DNA of 64,000 bases from Clostridia bacterium (GTDB lineage Bacteria; Bacillota; Clostridia; Oscillospirales; CAG-272). Below, piece after piece: positions 5,771 through 35,271 of this stretch. The DNA lies in assembly GCA_017483195.1 (NCBI GenBank), contig JAFULR010000010.1, positions 12,673-76,672 on the forward strand, read 5' to 3'. Numbering within the stretch: the first letter of the stretch is position 1; every line of letters begins with the position of its first letter. The position numbers and the translations under genes are program-made. The notes under the pieces are model-generated. The model made no database searches, had not been told where the DNA came from, and worked only from the letters and a program-made list of their open reading frames with translations.

Positions 5771-5876
5771 AAGATCTCCAAAAATGTGAATTTTTTATTA
5801 TATTATATGAAAATAAAAAGAATAATGCGTATTCCACCTGGGAATACTAAAATATCACTTTTAAAGGAGATTTTTT

Positions 5877-6488
5877 ATGAAAATAGAGAAGATATTAGTG
5901 CTTTTTTGCGTTTTTATGCTATGCGCGTCCGTTTGTGACGTGCTTCCCATCCACGGAGAGGAAAAAATTTACGGCAGCGTGGTGCGATTGCACGTTTTGG
6001 CAAATTCGGATTTGGAAGAGGATCAGGCGCTCAAATTAAAGGTGCGCGACGCGGTGCTTTCTTACGTTTCGCCCCTCGTTGCGGACTGCAAAAGCAGGGA
6101 AGAGGCGATAGAAATTTTACAGGACGAGCTTGAGAGCATCAAAACGGTGGCAGATGCCGCGGTGGATCGCGAGGGATACGATTATTCGGCGGACGTTACG
6201 TTGACGGTTGAGGATTATCCGACGCGAAATTACGAGGCGATGAGCTTTCCCTCGGGCGCTTACGTGTCGCTTCGTGTGATGCTTGGAGAAGCGGAAGGGC
6301 AGAACTGGTGGTGCGTGCTTTTTCCGCCGCTCTGCCTTGGTGCGGCGAGTGAGAAGCTTGAAAACGAGGAAGCATTCATCGCGGTGGGGCTCACGTCCGA
6401 CCAGTACAAAATAATCACCGAGACCGACGAGACGAAGTATTATCTGCGCTTTAAGATCCTTGAGGCGATAAGGGGCGCGGGGGAATAA
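5877..6488 (+). CDS. spoIIR: stage II sporulation protein R
   Basis: Signal peptide plus SpoIIR signatures (RLHVLANSD, WWCVLFPPLC). Confidence 0.85.
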   Translation: MKIEKILVLFCVFMLCASVCDVLPIHGEEKIYGSVVRLHVLANSDLEEDQALKLKVRDAVLSYVSPLVADCKSREEAIEILQDELESIKTVADAAVDREGYDYSADVTLTVEDYPTRNYEAMSFPSGAYVSLRVMLGEAEGQNWWCVLFPPLCLGAASEKLENEEAFIAVGLTSDQYKIITETDETKYYLRFKILEAIRGAGE

Positions 6489-21606: not shown

Positions 21607-24600
21607 TTATGCCGCCGCATTGGCGTTGATTTGGTCAATTATACTTTTAATACCGAGCCAGACTGACATATCGGTGAACACATCTACGATACTTCCTCTA
21701 TCGGTGAAAGGAGCTTCCTGCAAAACTGACATATCCCTCATCACACCGTTATGCACAATGTATTCGATGATTTGATTCACAAAATATATTTGATCCGAAT
21801 CAAGATTTGTGTTGCTCAGATAATCCGCGAACGCAGCTTTTGCAGCTGCCATATCAAGACCAACGATCTCTCTTACAAATTCACCAAGAGGTTTATCACC
21901 GCATTCTGCCTGATAGTCTTTTTGGCTTCCGACTTCACTCCAAAGAATATTCTCCAAAACCGCTATATCCTCTTCGTTCAACGGGATATTATTTCTAAGC
22001 TTGGTAATTACGTATTCATCCTGATGCTGACGAATATAAAACTCTGCCTTTGCTCTATAGTTTTGAAGATCTTCGCTTTCGAGATCTGATTCGTTCCAAT
22101 CAACCGACAAAATTTCGTCATTAAAATTAGTGATGTATTTAACCTTGTGTCTTGGAAGATATTTCATCAAGTCACGAAGATTTTCTCTTATATGCTCAAA
22201 TTCATTGATGCCCGCATTATCGAGATAATCTGTGTGCAAAATTTTGTTAATTAGTTCCGATTGTGCCATAATTTCGGGAATATTTGCTACGCTCGCAATA
22301 CCCGAAATCTTTTTATAAAGATCTGTGCGTGCGCGAGAATACTTCTTGCCTGCGAGATATGCAAGCTCAATTCCATACATAAGCGCGTCAAATCTAACTG
22401 CAGATGCCTCATCCTCATCGGGTATAATAAGTGGCGCAAGTTCTTCCGCGATCAACAAAGTATCTTCATATGTAAGAGAATTGCAATTATCGGGATTAGA
22501 ATATTCCTCAACGTAACGCAAGTGCTGACGAACAGCAAAGTTTTCTTTATTAAGCTCGCGAACTTTTCGAACCATATCGTCAACCAAAGACTTACGAAAT
22601 TCAATAAGATCGTTAGTTTGATAAACAATATCCTGCAATTTATATGCTATTTGTGCTTTCAATCTGAATATTGCTCCCTGCAATGCAATCTGGTTAGCAG
22701 TAGGACGTCCGTTGTTCATACGGAAAAATTCAAAGTTCCCGCAAAAATCGAAAATATAGAATTTATCTTTATCTTTGCCGTCCATAAGCCCATCACAACG
22801 ACGTGTGCCACGGCCGATCATCTGCCAGAATTTCGCCTTACTCATTACCTTCTTAAAGAAAACAAGATTAAGCACTTCGGGCACGTCAATACCCGTATCC
22901 AGCATATCAACCGAAATTGCAATTTGAGGTAGCTTTTTGGGATCAGAAAACTCGTCAATAGCACTTTGAGCATAGGTCATATAGTTATCAATGACCTTGG
23001 TATATCCGGGCAAATGTGGATACTCTTTACCGAAAATTTCGTGGATTTTTTCAGCATGCTCGTGATTTTTAGCAAATATGATCGTTTTGCCGAGCTTTTC
23101 ACCGTAGTCAATGCGAAGACCGTCTTGCATAAGAATGTGCAATACCTGACGAATAGTGTCCTCATTGAACACCCATTCGTTAATGGCAGAAGAAGCTATG
23201 CTCTCGGGCAAATCTCCATTTTCATCCTCAAACGTGTTTTCATATGTCTCTCTGTCTTCTTCGGAGAGATCATCGTAAACAATGCCTTGCTCTATAAATT
23301 TGAGCTTACTTTCAACTGATGTGAAATCGACAAGGAACCCATCAGTTACCGCCTGTGAAAGCTCATATGCATAGGTTGGCACGTTGGTCTCAAGCTCGAA
23401 AATATCATAAGTATTCTTATCAATTTCATCCTTGGGGGTAGCAGTCAAGCCGACCAAAGGAGCATCGAAATAATTGAAAATATCTCTGTATTTATTGTAA
23501 ATGGAACGGTGCGCCTCGTCCACGATAACAAGGTCAAAATGCCCTGTGGTAAGGAGCTTTTTATTATTCTCATCCTTGACGGTATCAATACAATTCATCA
23601 TTGTCTGATAGGTCGAAAATACGCAACGGGAATCAAAATTCTCTTTATCCTCACAAAGATTAGTTACAGACAGATCGGGCAGCATATTTACAAAAGCACG
23701 CTTTGCCTGTGTAACAAGAGAATTTCTGTCCGCAAGGAACAAAATATTCTTAACCCAGCCGTGGTCAAGCAACACCTTGCAAAGAGCGATAACAGTTCTC
23801 GTTTTACCGGAGCCGGTTGCCATAACGAGAAGCGCCTTTCTGCGATTCTTCTTGTCAAATGACTCGCAAACCGCCTTTATTGCTGCTTCTTGATAATAGC
23901 GTCCTGCAATAAGCTTGTCCACCATCACGTTCTTCAAGCTTGTCCTCATCGTTTGAAGATTGAAAAGCTTTTCAAGGTCGCGTTTTGAGTAAACGGATGC
24001 CACCTTGCGCTCGGGATAATACTTATCGTTCCAGATGCGCGTGTCAAAGCCGTTGGAGAGGAAGATTATCGGTCTGCGACCGTATTTTTGCTCCAAAAGA
24101 TCGGCATAGAGCTTCGCCTGCTGTCTGCCCTTGGAAACGTCAACGCAGGTGCGCTTTGCCTCAAGAACTGCAAGCGGTTTGCCATCATCTCCGTAAAGAA
24201 CGTAGTCCGCATATCCAACCTCGCTCTTGTTGGGCATTCCGTAAAGCTCGACCTCGTTTATCCAGTCCTTGCCCTCGGTCCAACCAGCATCCTGAAGCAT
24301 AAAATCAATATAGATCTTTCTCGTTTTGTATTCGGAAAGATCAAGCGGCTTAGGAACGTAGGTCTGCTGCTGCTCGGTACGGCGCGCGGTAAGCTCGTCC
24401 TTGAGCGCCTTGTTTTCTTCTATTAACTTGTTTATGTCGATATCTGCATCGGGCACGAACGAAAGCGCCTCTTGTGTAGTGAGCTCAAGCAAAGATCTGT
24501 CAAACTGCTGCTCCTCATAATCCGCGGAATAATAGCATGCAAGACAGTCAAGGAACACAAAGAGATTTTCAATACAAAGCTCTGCCTGCTCTTGAGTCAC

Positions 24601-24903
24601 CTTTCTTCCACCGTGAGCCGCATTGTTGCCGACCTTGCGAATGAAATCAAGACGTCGCCAAATGTCGTTACCGATCAAACGCCTAAAGCTGTCCTCACTC
24701 ATCAAGCTGACAAGGTTGTCCTGATAAGGCATAGCAAGATCGCGGTCAACGGAATACATCCACTTGATCGCAAACTCCATCGCCCTGCGGCAATTGATAA
24801 CGCAAGAATCGACGTCTATATGTAATATTTTCTCCGCCGATATCGCCACGTCCGAAAACGCATCAAAATCGCGGTTCTTTTTTAAGAAATCGAAGTTGGT
24901 CAT
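21607..24903 (-). CDS. hsdR: Type I restriction enzyme R subunit
   Basis: About 1100 aa; DUF4145-like N-terminus, SF2 helicase motifs (ATGSGKT, DEAH) and an HsdR C-terminal domain; start MTNFDFL with GAGGT RBS. Confidence 0.9.
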   Translation of the reverse strand: MTNFDFLKKNRDFDAFSDVAISAEKILHIDVDSCVINCRRAMEFAIKWMYSVDRDLAMPYQDNLVSLMSEDSFRRLIGNDIWRRLDFIRKVGNNAAHGGRKVTQEQAELCIENLFVFLDCLACYYSADYEEQQFDRSLLELTTQEALSFVPDADIDINKLIEENKALKDELTARRTEQQQTYVPKPLDLSEYKTRKIYIDFMLQDAGWTEGKDWINEVELYGMPNKSEVGYADYVLYGDDGKPLAVLEAKRTCVDVSKGRQQAKLYADLLEQKYGRRPIIFLSNGFDTRIWNDKYYPERKVASVYSKRDLEKLFNLQTMRTSLKNVMVDKLIAGRYYQEAAIKAVCESFDKKNRRKALLVMATGSGKTRTVIALCKVLLDHGWVKNILFLADRNSLVTQAKRAFVNMLPDLSVTNLCEDKENFDSRCVFSTYQTMMNCIDTVKDENNKKLLTTGHFDLVIVDEAHRSIYNKYRDIFNYFDAPLVGLTATPKDEIDKNTYDIFELETNVPTYAYELSQAVTDGFLVDFTSVESKLKFIEQGIVYDDLSEEDRETYENTFEDENGDLPESIASSAINEWVFNEDTIRQVLHILMQDGLRIDYGEKLGKTIIFAKNHEHAEKIHEIFGKEYPHLPGYTKVIDNYMTYAQSAIDEFSDPKKLPQIAISVDMLDTGIDVPEVLNLVFFKKVMSKAKFWQMIGRGTRRCDGLMDGKDKDKFYIFDFCGNFEFFRMNNGRPTANQIALQGAIFRLKAQIAYKLQDIVYQTNDLIEFRKSLVDDMVRKVRELNKENFAVRQHLRYVEEYSNPDNCNSLTYEDTLLIAEELAPLIIPDEDEASAVRFDALMYGIELAYLAGKKYSRARTDLYKKISGIASVANIPEIMAQSELINKILHTDYLDNAGINEFEHIRENLRDLMKYLPRHKVKYITNFNDEILSVDWNESDLESEDLQNYRAKAEFYIRQHQDEYVITKLRNNIPLNEEDIAVLENILWSEVGSQKDYQAECGDKPLGEFVREIVGLDMAAAKAAFADYLSNTNLDSDQIYFVNQIIEYIVHNGVMRDMSVLQEAPFTDRGSIVDVFTDMSVWLGIKSIIDQINANAAA

Positions 24904-24917
24904 ATAATACCTCACTA

Positions 24918-25556
24918 CTATATTTTCATATTACTCTTTTTCGTTTTCAAATTATCTAACTCTTCTTGTATTTGTTCATAATTCTTAATAATTTCTTCTT
25001 TATAATATTCGTGAGAGTCTGCTAACAATATAGCTTTATTCTTTACAACACGCAACATTGGATTATCTATAATTTGCGATAATCCCTCTCTGTTGCTTCT
25101 TCCAGATGCTTTCACCATATCTGTCATTATACTCAAAACCGCTATCTGCAATTCTCCAGATGTCTTGCTTTTTGTTTTTGAAAACCATTCGAGATTTGAA
25201 AGTTCCGACGAGATTTTTTTGATTCCGTTATATGTTTCATCATAATAATACTCCCATAACTTATCCGGAGTTTCTTCATCGGGGTTCAAAGATAATACAA
25301 TCAACAAATAATCAAAAAAGAAAAAATGCACATTAGATAAAATAGATTTGAGAGTTTTTTCTTGTTCGTATTTAAATTGTAAATATGTTGTAATAATAAC
25401 TACAACGATGCTACACGCAATACCTATCATATACTCCGACAAAAAAGAAACGATATTAAGCTTGGATAAACAGCTAAACTCAAAAACAAAAGATAAGAAA
25501 ACGCAAGCAAAAAATACAACAACACTATATTTCAATGTATTTTTATACAGTTTCAT
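24918..25556 (-). CDS. hypothetical membrane protein embedded between hsdS and hsdR
   Basis: 212 aa, 2 N-terminal TM helices plus a cytoplasmic domain; AT-rich; no known family recognised. Confidence 0.5.
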   Translation of the reverse strand: MKLYKNTLKYSVVVFFACVFLSFVFEFSCLSKLNIVSFLSEYMIGIACSIVVVIITTYLQFKYEQEKTLKSILSNVHFFFFDYLLIVLSLNPDEETPDKLWEYYYDETYNGIKKISSELSNLEWFSKTKSKTSGELQIAVLSIMTDMVKASGRSNREGLSQIIDNPMLRVVKNKAILLADSHEYYKEEIIKNYEQIQEELDNLKTKKSNMKI

Positions 25557-25567
25557 ATTTACTCACC

Positions 25568-26590
25568 TCACCCAAAATATTTTTGCATCAATGCTTTTTT
25601 TAGTGTTTCGAGCTGATTTAAGCTCTTTTGAATTTCAATTTTCGATTTGTCGATCTGTTCGACGAATGCAGTATATTCATTTTGCAGTTCTATTGGTGGC
25701 ATAATGTAATTTAATGTTTCCAAAGGCTTCTGTGTAATTTTAGGCTGTCCAGAAAAATCTGCATACTGGTAAAAGTCCATCATTCGCATCAGTTCCGTCA
25801 AGAACTCCAATGTATATGCATTTGTCTTCTGCTCTTTAATGTATATGGCATTATCAGTAATCCACACAGGGGTTGTAACTGCATGGATATTGCCACATTG
25901 TGCGCCTACCCGTCCAATAATTATAGTTGAATAGTCAACAAGAGATTCGCTTGTGTACCATGCAATTCCATTTCCACCATACACAGGAATACCTTCGTTA
26001 AGTCTTTTTTCTTCGGGCAGGAACTTGCCAGAGGAAAACTTGAATAGTTCACTGCCTGTTTTGCAATCAAAGCCTTTTTCGTTAATTCTGTAATCCCCAA
26101 ACATCTCGATAAATCGGGATTTGACGAGCTCGTCCAATTTTGCAAGTTGCTGTTTGCGTAGAGAAATTACACTATCAACTCGTTCAAGTTGCGCAACTAT
26201 CTCGACTTGTTCTTCAGTCAAATAGTCGGGTATCTCTATCTCTTTTAGCCACTTGAAATGTCTATTGTATCCCGTATTGGGAATATCGGCATTACAAAGC
26301 GCATAATACAAATACTTATAGTTTGCACTTTTGTCTTTTGCTTTCAAGAGTTTCACACCGTCTGCTCCAAGAAAACAAGGATTATCAATATATTTAATTA
26401 CCCTTGTATGATCACCAAAAACTATTGCTGGAACATCGATAAATAGACCCTTTTCTTCATTGGTATATCCGGCTATTTCTGACTGCCCTTGATCTATAAT
26501 AGGGTATAAGCCACTATCTAAATACAGATTGGTGGGGATTTTTGTTCCGAGTTTTGTAACATCCTCAAAAACATCTATAAATTTTGCCAT
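25568..26590 (-). CDS. hsdS: Type I R-M specificity subunit
   Basis: Two TRD-like halves separated by a conserved central repeat; C-terminal LKKALMQKYFG typical of HsdS. Confidence 0.8.
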   Translation of the reverse strand: MAKFIDVFEDVTKLGTKIPTNLYLDSGLYPIIDQGQSEIAGYTNEEKGLFIDVPAIVFGDHTRVIKYIDNPCFLGADGVKLLKAKDKSANYKYLYYALCNADIPNTGYNRHFKWLKEIEIPDYLTEEQVEIVAQLERVDSVISLRKQQLAKLDELVKSRFIEMFGDYRINEKGFDCKTGSELFKFSSGKFLPEEKRLNEGIPVYGGNGIAWYTSESLVDYSTIIIGRVGAQCGNIHAVTTPVWITDNAIYIKEQKTNAYTLEFLTELMRMMDFYQYADFSGQPKITQKPLETLNYIMPPIELQNEYTAFVEQIDKSKIEIQKSLNQLETLKKALMQKYFG

Positions 26591-26600
26591 CTCTATCTCC

Positions 26601-27035
26601 TTAAAACAATGATACTAAAGAAATAATTAACGCTACAAAACTAATTATTCCAGAGAACAACGCAAGAATATAATGCCTATCTTTTTCGCGCTTGACATCA
26701 TTAGACATTACTTTAATTATTACCGATATAACAAAACAAAGCACACACAAAACGAATATCAATAATAGACTTACTATGTTTCCAATTAATCTTTCTATGG
26801 ACCAATCAATTATTGCAATTGCAACATATATACTTGATGCAAATAGCAAAACAGATCCTATAGCCATCGCCCAAGCAAGTATTGCAAACAACAATGATGT
26901 GAACTCTTGCATAATGACACTATTTCCGTTTTCATCGGGCATTATAACCTCATCATTCCACAACTTCCAAAGCAATTTTATCCCTTTGGGCTCATTGCTT
27001 ACTTTTTTATTCTTATATTTTCTTTTTTTAGCCAT
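26601..27035 (-). CDS. hypothetical membrane protein (3 TM)
   Basis: 144-aa hydrophobic ORF between hsdM and hsdS. Confidence 0.45.
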   Translation of the reverse strand: MAKKRKYKNKKVSNEPKGIKLLWKLWNDEVIMPDENGNSVIMQEFTSLLFAILAWAMAIGSVLLFASSIYVAIAIIDWSIERLIGNIVSLLLIFVLCVLCFVISVIIKVMSNDVKREKDRHYILALFSGIISFVALIISLVSLF

Positions 27036-27366
27036 TAAAAATCTTCTCCTTTAGCCAATGAATTCCATAAATCAACAATCCAATTGCCGCAAGAATTATA
27101 AGAACCCACCACCAAGCAAATGAGAACAAACTCATAAGCCAAAGAATTCCTATAACGGTACAATATACAAGCAAATATAGCAATGCTCCCAAAGGTGGAA
27201 ACGACCCTTTTGAATATATAGTTCCAACTAACTTATACACAAGCAAATGAATAGGCGCTTCCACCACAAGATTAATCAAAATGGCATAATCACCAAAACA
27301 CTCAAAAGGATCTGGCAAGCAAAAAGTTCTTATCAACAAACTAATTACAACCATTATTTTATACAT
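27028..27366 (-). CDS. hypothetical membrane protein
   Basis: 112 aa, 3 TM helices; overlaps its neighbours by a few nt (operonic). Confidence 0.45.
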   Translation of the reverse strand: MYKIMVVISLLIRTFCLPDPFECFGDYAILINLVVEAPIHLLVYKLVGTIYSKGSFPPLGALLYLLVYCTVIGILWLMSLFSFAWWWVLIILAAIGLLIYGIHWLKEKIFNG

Positions 27367-28862
27367 TACAGCATCCCCTCCAGCTCTTTAAGTCCCTGCT
27401 GGATCTGCGCTTCAAGCTCGTTGATCTCGGCAAGGATCTGCGACGTGGGAGCATACTCCACAGGCTTATATTCGGTCTTTTTATACTTATTTATTGAGAG
27501 GTCATAATCGTTTGAAACTATCTCGGATTTGGGAACGAAAAAGCTCTTTTCGGTGCGCGCGCGATCAATTTCGCCATCACGGTTACGGAAGCGCGCGATA
27601 ATATCGGGAATATCGTTTGCCGCCACGGGTGTGCGCTTATCGTCAAGACTGAATCCGTCCGCGGTCATATCATAGAACCACACTTTATCCGTACCACCGT
27701 GACCTGTCTTGGTGAAGATCAGAATTCCCGTTGACACGCCTGCATAGGGTTTGAACACGCCCGAGGGCATCGAGATAACTGCTTCAAGACGGTTTTCATC
27801 AACAATTGCCTTACGGATCGCCTTGTGCGCTGTGGACGAGCCGAAAAGAACGCCGTCGGGAACGATAACCGCACATCTGCCGCCCACGCGAAGCATACGG
27901 AGCATCAATGCAAGGAACAAAAGCTCCGTCTTTTTTGTTTTGCAAACTTTGAGAAGATCGGGGGCAACCGTATCATAGTCAAGACTGCCCTTGAACGGTG
28001 GGTTAGCAAGGATAAGCGAATACCTTTCCTTATCCGTATTCTGATCGGACAAGCTATCACGGTATTCGATATAGGGGTTGTCCACTCCGTGAGTCATCAT
28101 ATTCATCGCACCGATACGAAGCATAGTTCTATCCATATCGTAGCCGTGGAACATACCGTTCATATAGTGCGCCTTCTTTTGTCTATTGAAGAATATCTCC
28201 TCTTTGCGCTTTTCTTTCAAATAATCTCCCGCCGAAACAAGGAATCCCGACGTACCGCAGGCGGGGTCACAGATGATCTCGTCTGCCCCGGGGTCCATAA
28301 GCTCAACCATCATACGAATAATGTGACGGGGTGTGCGGAACTGACCGTTAAGTCCCGACTGCGCAATTTTAGAAAGCAAATATTCGTAAACGTCGCCACG
28401 GATATCGGTATCCTTTATCTGCGACATTTTCTCATAAATATCGTCAAGTATAGTTACTATTTTATCAAGGAGCAAGGGTGTGGGGATCTTGAAGATCGCA
28501 TCATCCATATATTTGGAATATGCGCTATCCTTATCATCGTGAAGATTCTTAATAAAGGGGAAAACCCACTCCTGCACGGTAGCATACATCTTTCCCGCAG
28601 GAAAATCGTGGAACACCGACCACTTTAGCTGCTGACCGTCAATCTCACGCTCGCCAACCTTAACTTTATCTGCAAAAATACTCTTATGAGAAAGTCCGAG
28701 CATTACCGCTTCCTTAGCGCGAAGGTTATCCGTTTCGTCAAGATCGTGAATAAACATCAAATATGTAACCTGCTCGATTACGTCCAGCGGATTTACAAGT
28801 CCGCCCGTTGCAAATACGTCCCAAAGTCCGTCAATTCTATTTTTAAGTTCGCCTGTAATCAT
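27366..28862 (-). CDS. hsdM: Type I R-M N6-adenine DNA methyltransferase subunit
   Basis: HsdM N-terminal domain plus N6_Mtase motifs (NPPF, FLV(S)AG..); start MITGELK with AAGGAG RBS. Confidence 0.9.
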   Translation of the reverse strand: MITGELKNRIDGLWDVFATGGLVNPLDVIEQVTYLMFIHDLDETDNLRAKEAVMLGLSHKSIFADKVKVGEREIDGQQLKWSVFHDFPAGKMYATVQEWVFPFIKNLHDDKDSAYSKYMDDAIFKIPTPLLLDKIVTILDDIYEKMSQIKDTDIRGDVYEYLLSKIAQSGLNGQFRTPRHIIRMMVELMDPGADEIICDPACGTSGFLVSAGDYLKEKRKEEIFFNRQKKAHYMNGMFHGYDMDRTMLRIGAMNMMTHGVDNPYIEYRDSLSDQNTDKERYSLILANPPFKGSLDYDTVAPDLLKVCKTKKTELLFLALMLRMLRVGGRCAVIVPDGVLFGSSTAHKAIRKAIVDENRLEAVISMPSGVFKPYAGVSTGILIFTKTGHGGTDKVWFYDMTADGFSLDDKRTPVAANDIPDIIARFRNRDGEIDRARTEKSFFVPKSEIVSNDYDLSINKYKKTEYKPVEYAPTSQILAEINELEAQIQQGLKELEGML

Positions 28863-28864
28863 TT

Positions 28865-29926
28865 TTATTCTCCTTTTTCGTGATTCCACATATACGTTGT
28901 ATATCTTCCACCGCCGATTTTGAGGATCTCTCTACTCTTCAATAAGTCATTAAGCGCTCTTTGCACCGTTACCTGACTTATATCGGGGCATTTTTTCATA
29001 ATTTCTGTTTTTGTAATTGTTCCAAGTTTTTCTTTAATGATTTCGCGTATTCTTTCGGGCTTTGATAAATCATTTGACGAAAGAAGCTTCACTCTCAATG
29101 AAAACTCACGGTATGCTGCAACGATTACTGCAAGGTTGTACTGAACAAAAGGAATGTAATCGTTATCTCCCTCGTGCCAATTTGCAGAGCTGTTTTGAAG
29201 TGCCTCATAGTACGTTTCCTTTGTGTTCTCAATCATTTTTTCAATACTGATATATTTACCCACGATATATCCTGCACGGTACAATAGCAATAACGTAAGC
29301 AAGCGGCTCATTCTTCCATTGCCGTCATTAAAGGGATGGATGCACAAAAAATCCAAAACAAACATAGGAATAAGAAGAAGCGGATCTGCCTCGTTTTTAG
29401 CCATCATTTCGTCGAAAGCTGCACATATTTCATCTATTGCACCGGGTGTTTCAAAAGCTGAAAGCGGTTGAAAGCGAACACGTCTGTTTCCGGCTTCATC
29501 CTCTTCCTCAATTACGTTATCGGATCCCTTATATTTTCCACCTATGGATTTACCGCTAAATTTATACAAATCTCTGTGCAACTGTAAAATAATGGAGGGC
29601 TTCACGGGGATATAATCGTGATTATCGTGTATTGTAGCTAACACATCACGATAGCCCGCAATCTCCTGCTCGTTGCGAGTGCGGGGCGTTGTCTTGTTCG
29701 TAACAAGACTTTTTAATCTATCGTCCGAGGTGTAAATACCCTCAATTTTGTTTGATGCCTCAGTGCTCTGTATTTTTGCAACCTCAACAAGCTGAGTAAG
29801 GGTATCCGCTTTTGCTTTTATAAACAAAGTTTGCTCGCCCTTGTATTCGTGAATTTTGGTGAGCAAAGATACAATTTCGGGTATCAAAAGCTTTTGCCAT
29901 TTATTCTCATAACTATAATTTCTCAT
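28865..29926 (-). CDS. Fic/DOC family protein with C-terminal wHTH
   Basis: Canonical Fic motif HPFNDGNGRMSR; 353 aa; first gene of the R-M operon. Confidence 0.85.
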   Translation of the reverse strand: MRNYSYENKWQKLLIPEIVSLLTKIHEYKGEQTLFIKAKADTLTQLVEVAKIQSTEASNKIEGIYTSDDRLKSLVTNKTTPRTRNEQEIAGYRDVLATIHDNHDYIPVKPSIILQLHRDLYKFSGKSIGGKYKGSDNVIEEEDEAGNRRVRFQPLSAFETPGAIDEICAAFDEMMAKNEADPLLLIPMFVLDFLCIHPFNDGNGRMSRLLTLLLLYRAGYIVGKYISIEKMIENTKETYYEALQNSSANWHEGDNDYIPFVQYNLAVIVAAYREFSLRVKLLSSNDLSKPERIREIIKEKLGTITKTEIMKKCPDISQVTVQRALNDLLKSREILKIGGGRYTTYMWNHEKGE

Positions 29927-30170: not shown

Positions 30171-31379
30171 TTATTCAGCTGCCTTGAAATTGTATATGGG
30201 CTTGATTCTGCGAACAATATCGGCTGTGGGGCCTATATTTTCGATGATCTCATCCATACTCTTATATGCCATGGGGGACTCGTCGAGTGTGTCGGGAAGG
30301 ACACAGGTTGAGTAAATGCCATCCATCTCCTTTTCGTACTCCTCCATAGTAAGGCGCTCAAATGCGGCGGTACGTGACATAAGACGTCCCGCACCGTGAG
30401 GTGCTGAAAAGTTCCAGTCCTCGTTGCCCTTACCAATGCAAATAAGAGATCCGTCCCTCATATTGATGGGAACGAGGAGCTTCTCGCCAAGCTTTGCGGA
30501 AACAGAGCCCTTGCGGAGAATCATCTCACCAACGTCAATATAGTTATGAATGGTCTGGAAAGTATCAACAGCGGTCCAACCACATCTATCAAGAATAATC
30601 TCCGCCATTTTTGCACGGTTTCTCTCGGCAAATTTTTGGCAGATATCTACGTCGTGAAGGTAGTCATCCATAAACGAGCTATAGAGATAGCAAAGATCGT
30701 GAGGCAAGGTGGGATTTTTCGCTTTAAAATCTTTATCAAGCATCTTTAATGCTGCTTGAATTTCAGCTCTTCTGCCCTCTTCCTTGTATGTACGTATGAT
30801 CTCTTCGCGTTGCTTAAAATATTCCTCTTTACCTATGTTAAGGTCAACTGCAAGTTGCTGATAAAAATCTGCCACCTGAGTGCCAAGGTTACGGCTACCC
30901 GAATGAATAACGAGATATTTACCGCCATCCTCATCGACGTCCACCTCTATAAAGTGATTTCCGCCACCGAGCGTGCCAAGCGATCTTTCAAGTCTTTTGG
31001 TATCCCTGAGATTTCTGTAGCAGCGAAGAGAGGTGAGGTCAAATCTCTCGTTTCTTCCTTCCCAAACGTTTCTGCCACAGGGGATATAGTGAGCCGCCTT
31101 GTCAAGCTTCTCAAAGTCAATATCTATCTTTCCAAGGTAAACGGTGTACATACCGCAGCCGATGTCAACGCCCACCATAGCGGGCACTATTTTATCGGTA
31201 ATTGTCATAGTTGTACCTATGGTACAGCCCTTGCCCGCGTGAACGTCGGGCATTATTCTTATTTTGGATGAGGCAAATGCCTCGGTATCGCAAACCGCCT
31301 GTATCTGCTCACGCACACCATCCTCAAGAGTTGTCGCAAAGCATTTTGCGGTGTTGAATTTGCCTATAATCTCTATCAT
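30171..31379 (-). CDS. rtcB: RNA-splicing ligase RtcB
   Basis: RtcB signature residues/motifs (DVHAGKGC, GGNHFIE, PHGAGR); 402 aa. Confidence 0.85.
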   Translation of the reverse strand: MIEIIGKFNTAKCFATTLEDGVREQIQAVCDTEAFASSKIRIMPDVHAGKGCTIGTTMTITDKIVPAMVGVDIGCGMYTVYLGKIDIDFEKLDKAAHYIPCGRNVWEGRNERFDLTSLRCYRNLRDTKRLERSLGTLGGGNHFIEVDVDEDGGKYLVIHSGSRNLGTQVADFYQQLAVDLNIGKEEYFKQREEIIRTYKEEGRRAEIQAALKMLDKDFKAKNPTLPHDLCYLYSSFMDDYLHDVDICQKFAERNRAKMAEIILDRCGWTAVDTFQTIHNYIDVGEMILRKGSVSAKLGEKLLVPINMRDGSLICIGKGNEDWNFSAPHGAGRLMSRTAAFERLTMEEYEKEMDGIYSTCVLPDTLDESPMAYKSMDEIIENIGPTADIVRRIKPIYNFKAAE

Positions 31380-31448: not shown

Positions 31449-32552
31449 TTAGGCATTATTGCCGTGAAGGATTGATGTAAGCTGCGTAAGTACGTCAGAG
31501 CCGGAACCAATGTTGATGTTGCCGACATTCTCACAAATGCGCTCAACATACTCAAGCTCCTTAAGCTTATAAAGGGTTTTGTTTTCGTCCATAAGCTTAG
31601 CTGTATTGAGCAAGGATCTGGTCGATGCGACCTCCTCACGTCTTGTGATTACGTTCGCTTGAGCTCTCTTCTCGGCAACGAGAACGGTATTCATAATATC
31701 GCGGATTTCACCGGGAAGGATAATATCCTTAACTGCTGCATCCGTAATCTCGATATAGAGATTTTTCTCCTTTGCCTTGAGCTTCTCAAATACGAATTTT
31801 GACATACCGTCCTTGTTCTCAAGAATCTCATCAAATTTGTACTTACCCACGTACTCACGAAGGGCGAGTTGGGCAGCTACGTGCAACTGCTCCTCGTAAT
31901 TATTGATCTCGGTGAAAACCTTGATACAGTCAGTTACTCGGTAATTGCACACAAAATTGATACGAAGTGATACCTTATCCGCAGTAAGCATCTCTTGACC
32001 CGTAATATCCATCTGAGTAAGACGTGTATCAACAATATCAACGTCAACCTTAACAGATGTTCTCCAGAAGTAGTAAACACCTGCGTCAAGCACCTTGGCA
32101 AGCTTGCGATTGAAATAGATCAATGCCTTTTCATACTCACCAACCTCAACTCTAATGTAATAGAGTGTAGGAATCTTTGAAAACAGATGCTCGGGTATGG
32201 ATTCATCTACCTCTGGTGTGGTAATATCAACAACTGTGAATTCGTGCTTATCAACATCATTCCAATAAGCATACTTACCTGTTTTAAGTACACCTGCAAA
32301 CTTTCCGTTAACATAGTGAAAAGCAAGCTCGGTGTCTCCCACCTCACACACTGCTACGCGAGTAGCAAGCTCCTTGTTCTGAAGCAAGGTCTCAAGAGCA
32401 CATCTGTTAGAAGTGATCTGCTGATCAAGAGCGAGCAAATCCACAAGCTTGCCGCCCATGAGCCAATACTTGCCTGCTTCAAGCATCTTAACAAATTTTC
32501 CGTTTTTGAAAAGCAATCCTCTCTGCTTCTCTGTGATAATGATTTTCTGCAT
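31449..32552 (-). CDS. SPFH/band-7 (stomatin/prohibitin-like) domain protein, soluble
   Basis: 367 aa; central SPFH-like beta-rich region followed by a long coiled-coil/helical tail typical of slipins; no N-terminal TM helix. Confidence 0.6.
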   Translation of the reverse strand: MQKIIITEKQRGLLFKNGKFVKMLEAGKYWLMGGKLVDLLALDQQITSNRCALETLLQNKELATRVAVCEVGDTELAFHYVNGKFAGVLKTGKYAYWNDVDKHEFTVVDITTPEVDESIPEHLFSKIPTLYYIRVEVGEYEKALIYFNRKLAKVLDAGVYYFWRTSVKVDVDIVDTRLTQMDITGQEMLTADKVSLRINFVCNYRVTDCIKVFTEINNYEEQLHVAAQLALREYVGKYKFDEILENKDGMSKFVFEKLKAKEKNLYIEITDAAVKDIILPGEIRDIMNTVLVAEKRAQANVITRREEVASTRSLLNTAKLMDENKTLYKLKELEYVERICENVGNINIGSGSDVLTQLTSILHGNNA

Positions 32553-32835
32553 ATATGTATTCCTCCTTAGAGTAATTTAGTCGTGCCAAACGCCGTTCAT
32601 GGGAAAATCACGGCCGAGGATTTAAGTGCATCGAGCAAAGCACGGAGCATATAGCTTGGCACTTATTTCAAATACACGGTATCCTTCCTCGGACAAAGCG
32701 ATAATCGCATTTGCTACTCACGAGAAATAATTTCTCGCTTTTGCCGAACGGCATCAGCCTGGATTCTCAAAGCACTTTTGCACTTTGTTTTGTAGTTCTT
32801 CCTTAAGAACATCAAGTACCATACCGCTGGCAAGC

Positions 32836-32862
32836 TATTTTCACAGCTCGGTGGGATTCGAA
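32836..32862 (-). ncRNA. tRNA-like T-arm/acceptor mimic (part of a putative structured ncRNA; not a full tRNA)
   Basis: Minus-strand GTGGGTTCGAATCCCACCGAGCTG: 5-bp T-stem, canonical TTCGAAT T-loop and 7-nt 3' acceptor-like strand; no matching 5' acceptor, D- or anticodon arm. Confidence 0.45.
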
Positions 32863-33053
32863 CCCACGATAATAGGGGTGAGTCAAAACATCTTGACACA
32901 TTTCACCTTAGCGCTACAACTTAACAGGTTGTGCTATCGCAAGAGATCTTCTGACATACGCTTTGGTACACCTCGCGCATCGCAGTGGTTTTTCATACAC
33001 TCGCTTGAAGTACCTTGCAAGCATATTTTACCACCCAAGAAAAGCTTTTTCAC

Positions 33054-33095
33054 GGAAAAAAAGCTGCGAAACCACATAATTTCACAGCTTTTTTG
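33054..33095. terminator. weak bidirectional hairpin flanked by A-run/T-run
   Basis: AAAAAAAGCTG...CAGCTTTTTT downstream of the WYL gene stop. Confidence 0.3.
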
Positions 33096-33103
33096 ATATT
33101 TTT

Positions 33104-34015
33104 TTACTTAATTTTGCAATCAAATTGCTTCTGCAGCTTATTTTTCATAAGCTCTACGAACGGCTCGGGCTCGATAACTTCAACGAGAGGTCCAAACGAA
33201 AGTATTCTTATTACCATTTCCATCTCGTCTGCGTGATCGTATTTGATATGAACGAGATAATGCTTTCTGTCAAGCTTTTCTGCCTGCTTTTCAAAATGGG
33301 CAAAGTGCAGCATCACTCTTTCAAGTGCATTTCTATCGTCGGTTATCTTTAATGTAACGGTATCCATTCTTCCTTGATGCCTATGCTCTTTGGGTGTAAA
33401 CTCACCATTACAACGTGCTACCGAAACGATCTTTGACAGATTGATGACTGTCAAAAATCTGCATCCACTTGTAATAAGACGGAATTTATCGTCTTTTTCT
33501 GAGTATTCAAGTCTTACGGGAAGGCACTTGGCGTAGATATTTTGCCCTCTTACATTTTTCATATTGATCTTAACGGGAGTTTTGTTTCTGATCGCGTTGA
33601 GCAGATAGCGAAATCTTCCTACGTATGTTCTGTCCTCATAGTTATCACCGTCATTATATCGGTCAAAAACATAGTAGTCCTCTTGTGTGAAAAGAGGTTC
33701 AACATCGTCAAATCCCTCAAATTTAACACCGAAAAGCTTGATTCTGGGATCAAGAGAGATCGACTTCAACCATCTTTTTTGTAGGGTTGTAAGAGGCATA
33801 GTAGGTTTATGCTCAATAGCAGTGGTAAAATCACGGGTCATTACCTGCCATTTTTCGCTCTTTATGGCATTCATAATAGTAAAGGCACTGTCGCCAAAGG
33901 CATTTTCCTCAACGATTTTTTGCGCTGTCTTGCTGTCAACGTTGCTCTCTACCATAGCGGAGAGTATTTTTGCTACCGTGTTATAGTAAACGGAGTAAAG
34001 CTCACTGAATATCAT
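33104..34015 (-). CDS. WYL-domain transcriptional regulator (WYL + WCX)
   Basis: 303 aa; C-terminal RILSFGPLVEVIEPEPFVELMKNKL resembles the WCX extension of WYL regulators (PafC/BrxR-like). Confidence 0.6.
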   Translation of the reverse strand: MIFSELYSVYYNTVAKILSAMVESNVDSKTAQKIVEENAFGDSAFTIMNAIKSEKWQVMTRDFTTAIEHKPTMPLTTLQKRWLKSISLDPRIKLFGVKFEGFDDVEPLFTQEDYYVFDRYNDGDNYEDRTYVGRFRYLLNAIRNKTPVKINMKNVRGQNIYAKCLPVRLEYSEKDDKFRLITSGCRFLTVINLSKIVSVARCNGEFTPKEHRHQGRMDTVTLKITDDRNALERVMLHFAHFEKQAEKLDRKHYLVHIKYDHADEMEMVIRILSFGPLVEVIEPEPFVELMKNKLQKQFDCKIK

Positions 34016-35271
34016 TCGCTTACCTCCTTCCCGATTCCGTAAATCTCATACATTCTCTTAAGGTCTCCCTTGAAGCGGTTCTCGGCTGTACGGTTTGAGA
34101 AATCCATTTGCGTTATGCGACAAATAAAGGTCCTTATCCACGGGACAAGCTCGGTCGTATCATAAACGTCAGCAGAAAATCTGTACGTGTGATCGTCAAG
34201 CTTTTCAACGTTGCCGATCCTCTTTTCTCTATAGAGGCGGCGGACGATATATTCCTCATTGTCGGCAACATTAATGATAAATTCAACGTGTTCAAGATGC
34301 TCCTGCTTATATGCATTTTGCCTTGTGTTGACTCCCCACATCTTGGTCTGCATATCGTCAAGACGGGCACGAAGGTCATCAAAATTATCACAAACATCAA
34401 GGGGCTTCACGTTGGAAAGATAATCCACACGGTAGGACGTGATGCAACTGAACTGCGTTTGATAAGCAAGAAGATACTGTCTGCCGTTCTGCACGCTTAT
34501 AAATATGCGAAGCGGCACTATTTCGGCAAGTCTTGGCTCATCGTGTTTACGGTTGAGGTTGTTTGCGGTGATCGCACGCTTTTGCCTCATCGCATCAAAA
34601 AGGCAAGCGAGAACATCGGAGTCCATGGCGCTCGTTATGTAATGATGCTTAAACGTGAATGAGCTATCCGTCTTTTCTTCCTTGTCAAGCAGGAAAGAGC
34701 CGACAGCACCGCAAGGAGCGATCTCCGAAAAGTAGTCAAGCGCGTCCTTAATATCAACGGTGTCGATATGCTCGCTTCTTGAGTACGTTACCTTTCTTCC
34801 TTGCTTACTTGTGATTATTAAACCCTCGCTGCAATATTCCTTCAGCTTCTTGCGAATGGTGGACTCATCGAACATCATAGGAGCTTCAAAGCCCGAAAGA
34901 TATTTTTCGTCGATTATTTCCATAATCTCGGCAAGGGTGAATTCGACGTCGGGAGAATGCAAAATGTCAAAAATGATAAAATGCAAGGTGATATCGCCAT
35001 CGGTAAAGCTCTTTGCCTTCAATGCCTTGTAAAAGGGATTGTGCACCGACGTGCGACTGTCTATGGAGAGAAATACGTTCTTGCCCTCGGGTGTGCGAAC
35101 AAAGCTCATATAATCGCCGAGAATACTTTCCATTCTGCGCTTTTCATCGTCATAAGAACGCGCGCTCTTTTTGTCATAGTCAGCGCGGCTCTTAAATCCG
35201 TAAACGTAGAATTCCCGCATATACGAACGCACTCGCTCAAAATTCTTTATAAGCTCGTTATATGATGACAT
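34012..35271 (-). CDS. WYL-domain transcriptional regulator (wHTH + WYL + WCX)
   Basis: 419 aa; N-terminal wHTH-like region, central YLLAYQ (WYL-like) region, C-terminal ELVPWIRTF..RMYEIYG WCX-like region; 4-nt overlap with the downstream WYL gene. Confidence 0.55.
   Translation of the reverse strand: MSSYNELIKNFERVRSYMREFYVYGFKSRADYDKKSARSYDDEKRRMESILGDYMSFVRTPEGKNVFLSIDSRTSVHNPFYKALKAKSFTDGDITLHFIIFDILHSPDVEFTLAEIMEIIDEKYLSGFEAPMMFDESTIRKKLKEYCSEGLIITSKQGRKVTYSRSEHIDTVDIKDALDYFSEIAPCGAVGSFLLDKEEKTDSSFTFKHHYITSAMDSDVLACLFDAMRQKRAITANNLNRKHDEPRLAEIVPLRIFISVQNGRQYLLAYQTQFSCITSYRVDYLSNVKPLDVCDNFDDLRARLDDMQTKMWGVNTRQNAYKQEHLEHVEFIINVADNEEYIVRRLYREKRIGNVEKLDDHTYRFSADVYDTTELVPWIRTFICRITQMDFSNRTAENRFKGDLKRMYEIYGIGKEVSE

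Follow-up and report, generated by a model that had tools for sequence, protein, structure and literature searches.

The locus

The window analysed here is a stretch of 64,000 nucleotides (nt) from a Clostridia bacterium (GCA_017483195.1, contig JAFULR010000010.1, positions 12,673 to 76,672 of the forward strand). On its minus strand, a gap of 551 bp (32553-33103) separates a gene for a protein of 303 amino acids (aa; 33104-34015) from a gene of the SPFH/Band-7 family (31449-32552). A preliminary description of this gap reported an element resembling the T-arm of a tRNA in a region rich in hairpins, and offered a YrlA-like (Y RNA-like) RNA or an attachment (att) site remnant as explanations. 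The observation is real but was under-read, and its interpretation pointed to the right neighbourhood and the wrong family: the T-arm belongs to a tRNA-like module within a structured RNA of about 430 nt. This RNA is part of a cassette of conserved order, consisting of two WYL-domain genes, a terminator with a 21-nt operator-like box and a promoter, the RNA, SPFH and RtcB.

The genes of the cassette and the RNA between them are:

34012..35271, minus strand: WYL-domain regulator gene 1 (419 aa), which opens the cassette (Pfam WYL, 2.4e-06; PADLOC WYL, 1.5e-11; syntenic)
33104..34015, minus strand: WYL/WCX-domain regulator gene 2 (303 aa), a paralogue of gene 1 (Pfam WCX, 1.7e-05; PADLOC WYL, 1.2e-09; syntenic)
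32592..33022, minus strand: the whole structured RNA, about 430 nt, with a 5' domain, variable hairpins, a tRNA-like domain and a 3' domain (covariation, folding)
31449..32567, minus strand: SPFH/Band-7 (stomatin-like) gene, 367 aa, with the ribosome-binding site AGGAGG at 32567-32562 (Pfam Band_7, 1.2e-30; stomatin matches in PDB)
30171..31379, minus strand: RtcB RNA ligase gene, 402 aa (Pfam RtcB, 2.2e-56)

For comparison, 80 related loci from species-representative genomes were fetched with the SPFH protein as query. They come mostly from metagenome-assembled genomes of Oscillospiraceae, Acutalibacteraceae, Lachnospiraceae and Ruminococcus, and also cover Dielma, Hominibacterium, Phascolarctobacterium and one Alloiococcus isolate. 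Carriers available in culture include Subdoligranulum variabile (OY725857), Hominibacterium faecale SF3, Dielma fastidiosa JC13 and Alloiococcus sp. CFN-8, besides E. coli strains with a slipin-RlaP cassette. The order WYL, WYL/WCX, a gap of about 450-580 nt and SPFH is kept in about 59 of the 80 loci, with RtcB downstream of SPFH in 60; loci without RtcB have the repair nucleotidyltransferase RlaP after SPFH instead. Outside the cassette the genes are not conserved, even in relatives that are 96-99% identical.

A structured RNA with three covarying parts

The gap is indeed dense in hairpins, as first described, with an RNAfold z of -3.99 against 100 dinucleotide shuffles. The 5', tRNA-like and 3' parts of the RNA each covary strongly across the 80 syntenic Clostridia loci, and the comparison with orthologous loci that had been proposed as a check on the element gave strong support in all three. 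The pairing statistics were set against slid controls, in which the pairing partners are shifted, and, for the module and the 3' domain, also against 500 shuffles. Two covariance models were used, R1 for the tRNA-like module and R2 for the 5' domain; the alignment of the module was fitted to R1 itself, while those of the 5' and 3' domains are sequence-only MAFFT alignments that are blind to structure. The 5' end of the RNA is predicted at 33022-33018, as the position of the -10 box and the conserved signals upstream make a start near there probable, and the 3' limit is taken as the last conserved helix. The earlier span of 32600-33060 has to be revised to a structured RNA from about 33022 to 32592, which extends beyond it.

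The tRNA-like module has the following parts:

32876-32868, minus strand: linker CCUAUUAUC before the T-arm (sequence)
32851..32867, minus strand: T-arm with a 5-bp stem GUGGG/CCCAC and the loop UUCGAAU (sequence and covariation)
32831..32850, minus strand: closed acceptor-like hairpin, CGAGCU-GUGAAAAU-AGCUUG, directly 3' of the T-stem (covariation)
32819..32830, minus strand: D-arm-like hairpin CCA-GCGGUA-UGG, its loop containing GG (covariation)
32795..32810, minus strand: post-D hairpin GUUCUU-AAGG-AAGAAC (4/4 pairs of this fourth helix changed on both sides)

The sequence first noticed, GTGGG-TTCGAAT-CCCAC-CGAGCTG, stands on the minus strand at 32867-32844. The window has a single match to a strict T-arm pattern, compared with 0.115 expected per shuffled window, a count that by itself is weak and only suggestive; it is conservation that decides. 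The T-arm is found upstream of SPFH in 70 of the 80 loci, mostly 250-350 nt away. Its stem is 99.7% paired, with GC, AU, CG and UA types at three of the five pairs (GUGGG/CCCAC, GCGGG/CCCGC, GCAGG/CCUGC, GCCGG/CCGGC, UUGGG/CCCAA and ACAGG/CCUGU all occur), and the bases of its loop are invariant.

The preliminary description was correct in finding no complementary acceptor strand, CAGCTCG, upstream of the T-arm; the partner lies downstream (CGAGCU..AGCUUG, 32850-32831), which closes the acceptor into a hairpin that stacks on the T-stem. A hairpin of 5-10 bp occupies this place in all 44 distinct sequences that have a D-arm, even though the sequences are unrelated and vary freely (CGAGCU.., CGUAUGC.., UCAAGUAC.., CAUACAUC.., UCCGUGUU.., CUGAUCUU..), and all seven modelled pairs show changes on both sides. 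Both the D-arm and the anticodon arm had been reported as missing. An anticodon-like loop is in fact absent from the RNA of the window, but the D-arm-like hairpin is there, starting 0-2 nt after the acceptor hairpin with the family form CCA-GYGGUU-UGG; its stem is 90.5% paired and varies between CCA/UGG, CCC/GGG, CCU/AGG and CCG/CGG. The post-D hairpin has 4-6 bp in the relatives, often with a GAAA or UUCG loop.

Taken over the whole module, 89.6% of cells are paired in the R1-fitted alignment, where slid controls reach 34-45%; double-sided changes number 304 as against at most 99, and none of the 500 shuffles reaches the observed values. R1 scores 60.5 bits on 32790-32875 of the minus strand (E = 6e-18), whereas the true tRNA-Ser of the window scores 13 bits. 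It finds one strong match per locus in 64 loci, including loci outside the seed, and always upstream of SPFH. The module is the elbow-forming half of a tRNA in the permuted order of YrlA: T, closed acceptor, D. Covariation at the Levitt pair (15:48), as used for YrlA, was also considered; L048 and L051 speak for it while L054 and L071 contradict it, and it is not claimed.

The 5' domain and the variable segment that follows it are made up as follows:

32938..33019, minus strand: 5' domain, in which helix P1 (UGCAAG 33019-33014 with CUUGCG 32943-32938) encloses Ha and Hb/Hc (covariation)
33004-32982, minus strand: hairpin Ha, inside P1
32981-32953, minus strand: hairpins Hb/Hc, GAUGCGC-GA-[GGU GU ACC]-AAA-GCGU-AU-GUC, inside P1
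32877..32936, minus strand: variable segment, UAGC-ACAAC..GUUGU-A-GCGCUA (32936-32909) and GGUGA..[GUCAA..UUGAC]..UCACC (32907-32877), in the window and close relatives only

In P1, UGCAAG pairs with CUUGCR about 75 nt downstream, and the variants CGCAAG/CUUGCG, ACAGG/CCUGU, GCAGAA/UUCUGC and UACAGA/UCUGUA are found. The enclosed family motif is GGUGCAC-GA-[GGN NNN N'CC]-AAA-GUGU-AU-GCC. With the plain MAFFT alignment, 92.7% of cells in Ha, Hb and Hc are paired compared with at most 55% in slid controls, and 42 double-sided changes compare with at most eight. Of the 76 loci with sufficient DNA upstream, R2 matches 74. P1 is preferred to a local hairpin GCUUG..CAAGC at the 5' end of the RNA, overlapping the formerly proposed -35 element, which is 58% paired and no better than controls. 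A pairing between GUAUGCC of the 5' domain and GGAUAC of the 3' domain was likewise not adopted: both strands are nearly invariant and show no compensatory changes, and L054 and the AGAUAC variants are weakly against it.

The two hairpins named in the preliminary description are present in the window but lie in the variable segment, where relatives have 0-3 unrelated hairpins, some resembling an anticodon stem-loop and some a T-loop. Anticodon stem-loop look-alikes stand just 5' of the T-arm in L006, L007, L008, L012, L016, L022, L024, L030, L045, L047 and L052. A 7-nt anticodon-like loop C-U-NNN-A-A occurs in about 14 of 62 distinct relatives, with invariant flanks around the triplets GUC, GUU, GUA, UUU, UUG and GAC; it was not found in the RNA of the window or of its clade. 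A second T-loop-like hairpin, GGGG-UUCAAMU-CCCC, precedes the main T-arm as a tandem T-loop in L014, L018, L020, L028, L034, L058 and L072, and also at L082 4640-4665, the Burkholderia form being CCGGGUUCGACUCCCGG.

The 3' domain consists of nested long-range helices:

32592..32752, minus strand: 3' domain, about 160 nt, nested long-range helices and a side hairpin (covariation, minimum free energy fold)
32752-32746 with 32598-32592, minus strand: helix H_E
32710-32708 with 32601-32599, minus strand: helix H_G
32692-32686 with 32620-32614, minus strand: helix H_A
32677-32671 with 32632-32626, minus strand: helix H_B
32664-32659 with 32643-32638, minus strand: helix H_C
32656-32646, minus strand: H_D, the innermost
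32737-32721, minus strand: side hairpin H_F

From the outside inwards the nesting order is H_E, H_G, H_A, H_B, H_C, H_D, and these helices are reproduced by the unconstrained minimum free energy fold of the window RNA. Paired cells amount to 84.3% compared with at most 41% in slid controls, double-sided changes to 194 compared with at most 57, and again 0/500 shuffles reach the observed values; H_B is separately supported (82% versus at most 58%). The internal loops, which in the window read GCUUUGUC, GGAUACCG (32684-32677), GCCAAG, CUCCG, CUUAA and GCCG, are almost invariant across loci (GCCUUGYC, GGAUACCG, GCCAAAG, UUUCCGC, CUUAA and GCCGCC). About 40 nt separate the end of the last helix from the start codon of SPFH.

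Terminator, box and promoter

Between the WYL genes and the RNA lie three overlapping signals:

33056..33089, minus strand: intrinsic-terminator-like inverted repeat (AAGCUGUGAAA..UUUCGCAGCUU) with a run of seven T, at the end of the WYL genes (sequence)
33050..33070, minus strand: 21-nt box TTCGCAGCTTTTTTTCCGTGA, an imperfect inverted repeat TTCGC-N12-GTGAA that overlaps the -35 region (sequence conservation)
33025..33053, minus strand: predicted sigma-70-type promoter with -35 GTGAAA (33053-33048), a 17-nt spacer and a TG-extended -10 TAAAAT (33030-33025) (promoter scan)

The 3' arm of the terminator and its T-run are conserved in sequence across loci. The box spans this arm, the T-run and the -35 region; it is found exactly, and once each, in 42 of the 80 loci although the proteins are only 40-70% identical, and is unique in the window even when three mismatches are allowed. 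The box is probably the operator of the WYL pair and would at the same time serve to terminate the WYL genes. The -10 box of the relatives stays within consensus (TAAAAT, TACAAT, TATACT or TAGAAT) at a fixed spacing of 17-18 nt. This conserved promoter, GTGAAA-17-TAAAAT, replaces the previously suggested TTGCAA-17-TATGAA, which falls inside the conserved RNA, where UGCAAG is the 5' strand of P1. The interval from the RNA to SPFH contains no terminator. A match to the Rfam family FuFi-1 at 33058-33305 of the minus strand, which overlaps the WCX gene at its 3' end as well as the terminator, scores 32.5 bits, below the gathering score of 59.6, and is probably due to the terminator hairpin.

The arrangement resembles PafBC-type WYL pairs, in which adjacent paralogous WYL proteins likewise stand beside a promoter whose weak -35 is replaced by a conserved box. 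In contrast, the WYL proteins of the cassette are without a match in a search of PDB sequences, and their ligand and DNA binding are putative. Their genes are closely joined, with the start of gene 2 overlapping the stop of gene 1.

Proteins and neighbourhood of the cassette

Residues 1-135 of the SPFH protein form an N-terminal extension in which the first SPFH beta-hairpin motif (G-K-x4-L-x2-G-x-Y-x2-W) appears in two additional copies, and no transmembrane segment is evident, which is unusual among stomatin-like proteins. An extra open reading frame (ORF) of about 210-280 aa, without a Pfam match, lies between the RNA and SPFH in four loci (L019, L044, L059 and L063), and L047 carries a truncated relic of 49 aa at 5829-5978; Pfam was mostly uninformative for the inserted and neighbouring ORFs of the relatives. 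In the window, the genes directly downstream of rtcB (21607-29926) encode HsdR, HsdS and HsdM of a type I restriction-modification system together with a SoFic-like Fic protein, which gives a defence-island context. These genes are specific to the window and missing from the relatives that are 96-99% identical, while L037 has an OLD-family ATPase-TOPRIM nuclease in their stead.

Database searches and class membership

Rfam 15 was searched with the gap (E up to 10), with the whole window and with 11 related loci and returned nothing relevant; the sole match within the gap is a local one of 16 bits, between the T-arm and the tmRNA model. Neither ARAGORN nor the Rfam tRNA model calls a tRNA at 32790-32875, and the one tRNA that ARAGORN reports in the window is the tRNA-Ser elsewhere. 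In L030 and L074, ARAGORN calls of "tRNA-Lys" and "tRNA-Asn" were dismissed as poor cloverleaves with mismatched acceptor stems.

The element shares with tRNAs a 5-bp T-arm with a UUCRANY loop and the GG of the D-loop, but it lacks an open 7-bp acceptor formed from the 5' and 3' ends. It is not a tRNA gene, as the preliminary description already held: tRNA finders fail and the acceptor is closed into a hairpin. With YrlA it shares the order of T stem-loop, closed acceptor stem-loop and D stem-loop. Literature searches turned up no structured-RNA motif associated with rtcB.

Known systems and proteobacterial counterparts

Burroughs and Aravind are said to have predicted a tRNA-like RNA associated with Band-7/SPFH genes (b7a-tRNA) in Nucleic Acids Research (NAR) in 2016. 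To our knowledge, RNAs of this kind have never been validated experimentally since that prediction. In a later text, the arrangement of RtcB, Band-7 and predicted b7a-tRNA is described as experimentally unvalidated, and the RNA as one with a strong resemblance to a genuine tRNA (bioRxiv 10.1101/312249).

Full-length proteobacterial homologues of the SPFH protein were found at 33-34% identity, and a tRNA-like element occupies the equivalent place in these distant loci. The Burkholderia multivorans locus has a sigma-54-type promoter, next a T-loop hairpin and then, 260 nt upstream of SPFH, a canonical cloverleaf, which ARAGORN calls as a tRNA and the Rfam tRNA model scores at 44 bits; a divergent ORF of 538 aa at this locus is possibly rtcR. 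The slipin gene of E. coli has a T-arm and a closed hairpin 125 nt upstream (R1, 22.6 bits), and these come after a sigma-54-type promoter. The E. coli cassette of slipin, nucleotidyltransferase and kinase is present in 1425 of 5426 complete genomes, where the RNA is unannotated. In E. coli CP061233 (L081, 611.3-614.8 kb) it forms an island between a DUF3811 gene and lysC, with genes for slipin, a nucleotidyltransferase and a zeta-toxin-family kinase and no adjacent rtcR. A resemblance to the 5' domain seen by eye in E. coli and Burkholderia (GGUGCGC..GCGCAUGCC) is not claimed as homology, since R2 gave no match there.

As these elements stand at the same place, the Clostridial element is the positional and structural counterpart of b7a-tRNA: in each case, an RNA with tRNA features lies beside an SPFH/Band-7 gene in an RtcB or RlaP repair neighbourhood, position and strand agree with the elements upstream of the Burkholderia and E. 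coli homologues, and the T-arms are nearly identical (GCGGGUUCGAMUCCCGC). The Clostridial form differs in that its acceptor is closed, tRNA detectors miss the element, and conserved 5' and 3' domains surround the module within an RNA of about 430 nt. Control differs as well, with a WYL pair and a sigma-70-type promoter in Clostridia as opposed to a sigma-54-like promoter at the proteobacterial loci.

The layout of T arm, closed acceptor hairpin and D arm is that of YrlA (Chen et al. 2014, PMC4201824; Wang et al. 2018). Likenesses to YrlA extend to the order (V)-T-closed acceptor-D, the signatures of the T-loop and the D-loop GG and the operon shared with RtcB. By contrast, the Clostridial RNA has neither a Ro60/Rsr partner among the ORFs scanned nor the GNCGAAN0-1G motif nor a Ro-binding stem formed from its two ends, it measures about 430 nt as against about 100 nt, and its partner would be SPFH. 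The large RNAs OLE, ROOL, GOLLD and raiA share with it a length of several hundred nt, many covarying helices, invariant internal loops, occurrence in Firmicutes and a function that is unknown or partly known. The present RNA has no match to them in Rfam 15 sequence or structure and is strictly tied to WYL-WYL-RNA-SPFH.

A model for the RNA and its rivals

The T-arm forms the heart of the tRNA-like module in a three-domain RNA of about 430 nt. We consider it rather probable that this RNA is the first product of an RNA-SPFH-RtcB unit, represents the Clostridial form of b7a-tRNA and acts as a partner of SPFH and RtcB, much as Y RNA does with Ro. On this model, the RNA would be transcribed together with SPFH and RtcB, possibly processed, and would partner the oligomeric stomatin-like SPFH protein. 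The tRNA-like elbow might engage RtcB or other factors that recognise tRNA, or it might offer a tRNA-shaped surface, as Y RNA does for Ro60. The WYL pair may bind the box and switch the promoter on upon RNA damage, a step proposed by analogy with RtcR and damaged tRNAs (PMC7790460); the control of rsr-yrlA-rtcBA by RtcR and sigma-54 would be the parallel.

Several observations weigh against this model. The promoter and both ends of the RNA are predicted from sequence, as is any processing. The module is complete in 64 loci, but only the T-arm is left in L011, L021, L050 and L074, and in L009, L017, L067 and L077 the module has degenerated or is missing. With the exception of L074, these loci all retain the 5' domain, which implies that the constant core of the RNA may not be its tRNA-like part. 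R2 finds no match in the E. coli and Burkholderia RNAs. The label of a permuted and embedded Clostridial b7a-tRNA, which fits better than YrlA, is drawn from a citing text and from our own comparison. The distance from GGAUACCG to the start codon of SPFH, nearly constant at about 128 nt, would also fit a cis-acting leader.

Such a leader is a serious rival, if a fairly unlikely one: a 5' untranslated region of about 430 nt would sense a protein (SPFH or RtcB, for example), damaged tRNA or a metabolite and set the translation or stability of the SPFH-rtcB mRNA. Besides the constant spacing, it would account for the position of the RNA on the same strand and directly upstream of SPFH with no terminator in between, and for the fact that the RNA stays first in the operon even where an ORF has been inserted before SPFH. 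However, no expression platform was found at these loci, neither a terminator/antiterminator pair nor a conserved pairing with the ribosome-binding site, and the size and three-domain complexity are far above those of known leaders; moreover, the non-coding RNAs of rsr-yrlBA-rtcBA are encoded in an operon and still act as ribonucleoprotein partners of Ro60 (PMC4201824). The module could instead be a bait or sentinel for anticodon nucleases, mimicking the tRNAs targeted by ribotoxins, so that its cleavage would protect tRNAs or signal to the WYL pair and RtcB would reseal it. The anticodon-like loops 5' of the T-arm point this way, as their varying triplets are mostly those of tRNAs hit by known anticodon nucleases. 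GUN anticodons are the target set of colicin E5, and UUU (Lys) is the target of PrrC. The cassette also often lies beside defence genes, as in the window and L037, and RtcR, the analogous regulator, responds to cleaved tRNA (PMC7790460). Against this stand the lack of such a loop in the window and its clade, the second T-loop-like hairpin or nothing at all in its place in other lineages and the relatedness of the sequences, which means that the triplet statistics are not independent; we regard this role as improbable.

The two explanations offered in the preliminary description fare worse. A true YrlA or Y RNA, binding a Ro60 (Rsr) whose gene lies in another part of the genome, would fit the order of the arms and the adjoining rtcB, and to this extent the likeness to YrlA and its setting in an RtcB operon stand. 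It is nevertheless very improbable, since no TROVE/Ro domain was found in the 16 large ORFs of the window that were scanned (four large ORFs were left unscanned) or among the conserved cassette genes, which agrees with the earlier remark that no rsr lies beside the locus; for a YrlA, a Ro60/Rsr gene would be expected on the same strand and no more than about 4 kb away. A regular-expression search of the window RNA for GNCGAAN0-1G, the putative Ro-binding site that would stand near the 5' end, gave no occurrence; apart from the local tmRNA match, Rfam 15 yielded no family at E up to 10, although the presence of a YrlA model there is unconfirmed and a positive control is lacking; and the RNA is about four times as long as a Y RNA, with unrelated flanking domains. 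An att remnant, that is, a duplicated 3' fragment of a tRNA at an island boundary, has a practically negligible probability. The variable DNA that flanks the cassette, with Fic and type I restriction-modification after rtcB in the window only, could suggest a boundary, and downstream of rtcB L010 does have a real 3' fragment of tRNA or tmRNA type that ends in GCCA. The window element lies, however, inside the conserved cassette and not at its edge, recurs at this position in 64 syntenic loci, where its stems show compensatory changes, and has conserved RNA structure on both flanks. There is no CCA end, as had been correctly noted, the supposed acceptor strand pairs with the bases that follow it, the 21-mer of the fragment has no second copy in the window, and no SPFH relatives were found in viral contigs. 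The fragment of L010 (5049-5129, minus strand, ..CACGUGGGUUCGAAUCCCACCAUCUCCGCCA) looks like a genuine att-type remnant and contrasts with the window element.

Beyond the proposed partnership with SPFH and RtcB, a more far-reaching but doubtful idea is that the RNA of about 430 nt represents an undescribed large class. Its constant 5' and 3' domains would then form a ribonucleoprotein with a ring- or cage-forming SPFH protein, similar to Ro-Y RNA or vaults, and the swappable tRNA-like module, which in sister lineages bears rapidly changing anticodon-like loops (GUN, UUU, UUG), would be a sentinel or bait that links ribotoxin attack, WYL induction and resealing by RtcB. The flanking domains, the permuted topology with a closed acceptor, the helix map, the WYL pair with its box and the dispensability of the module in some lineages appear to be new.

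Significance

Bacterial RNA repair is poorly understood, and we know of no RNA cofactors in it that have been studied other than the Y RNAs of Ro60. For the RNA predicted in the Band-7/SPFH branch of these systems, a helix map and coordinates are now available. The tRNA mimic of gut Clostridia is a single domain within a far larger, heavily covarying RNA that is tied to SPFH, usually to RtcB, and to a putative sensor pair of WYL proteins. The RNA family is a clear candidate for an Rfam entry, and the candidate operator together with cultured carriers makes the role of the SPFH-associated RNA directly testable.

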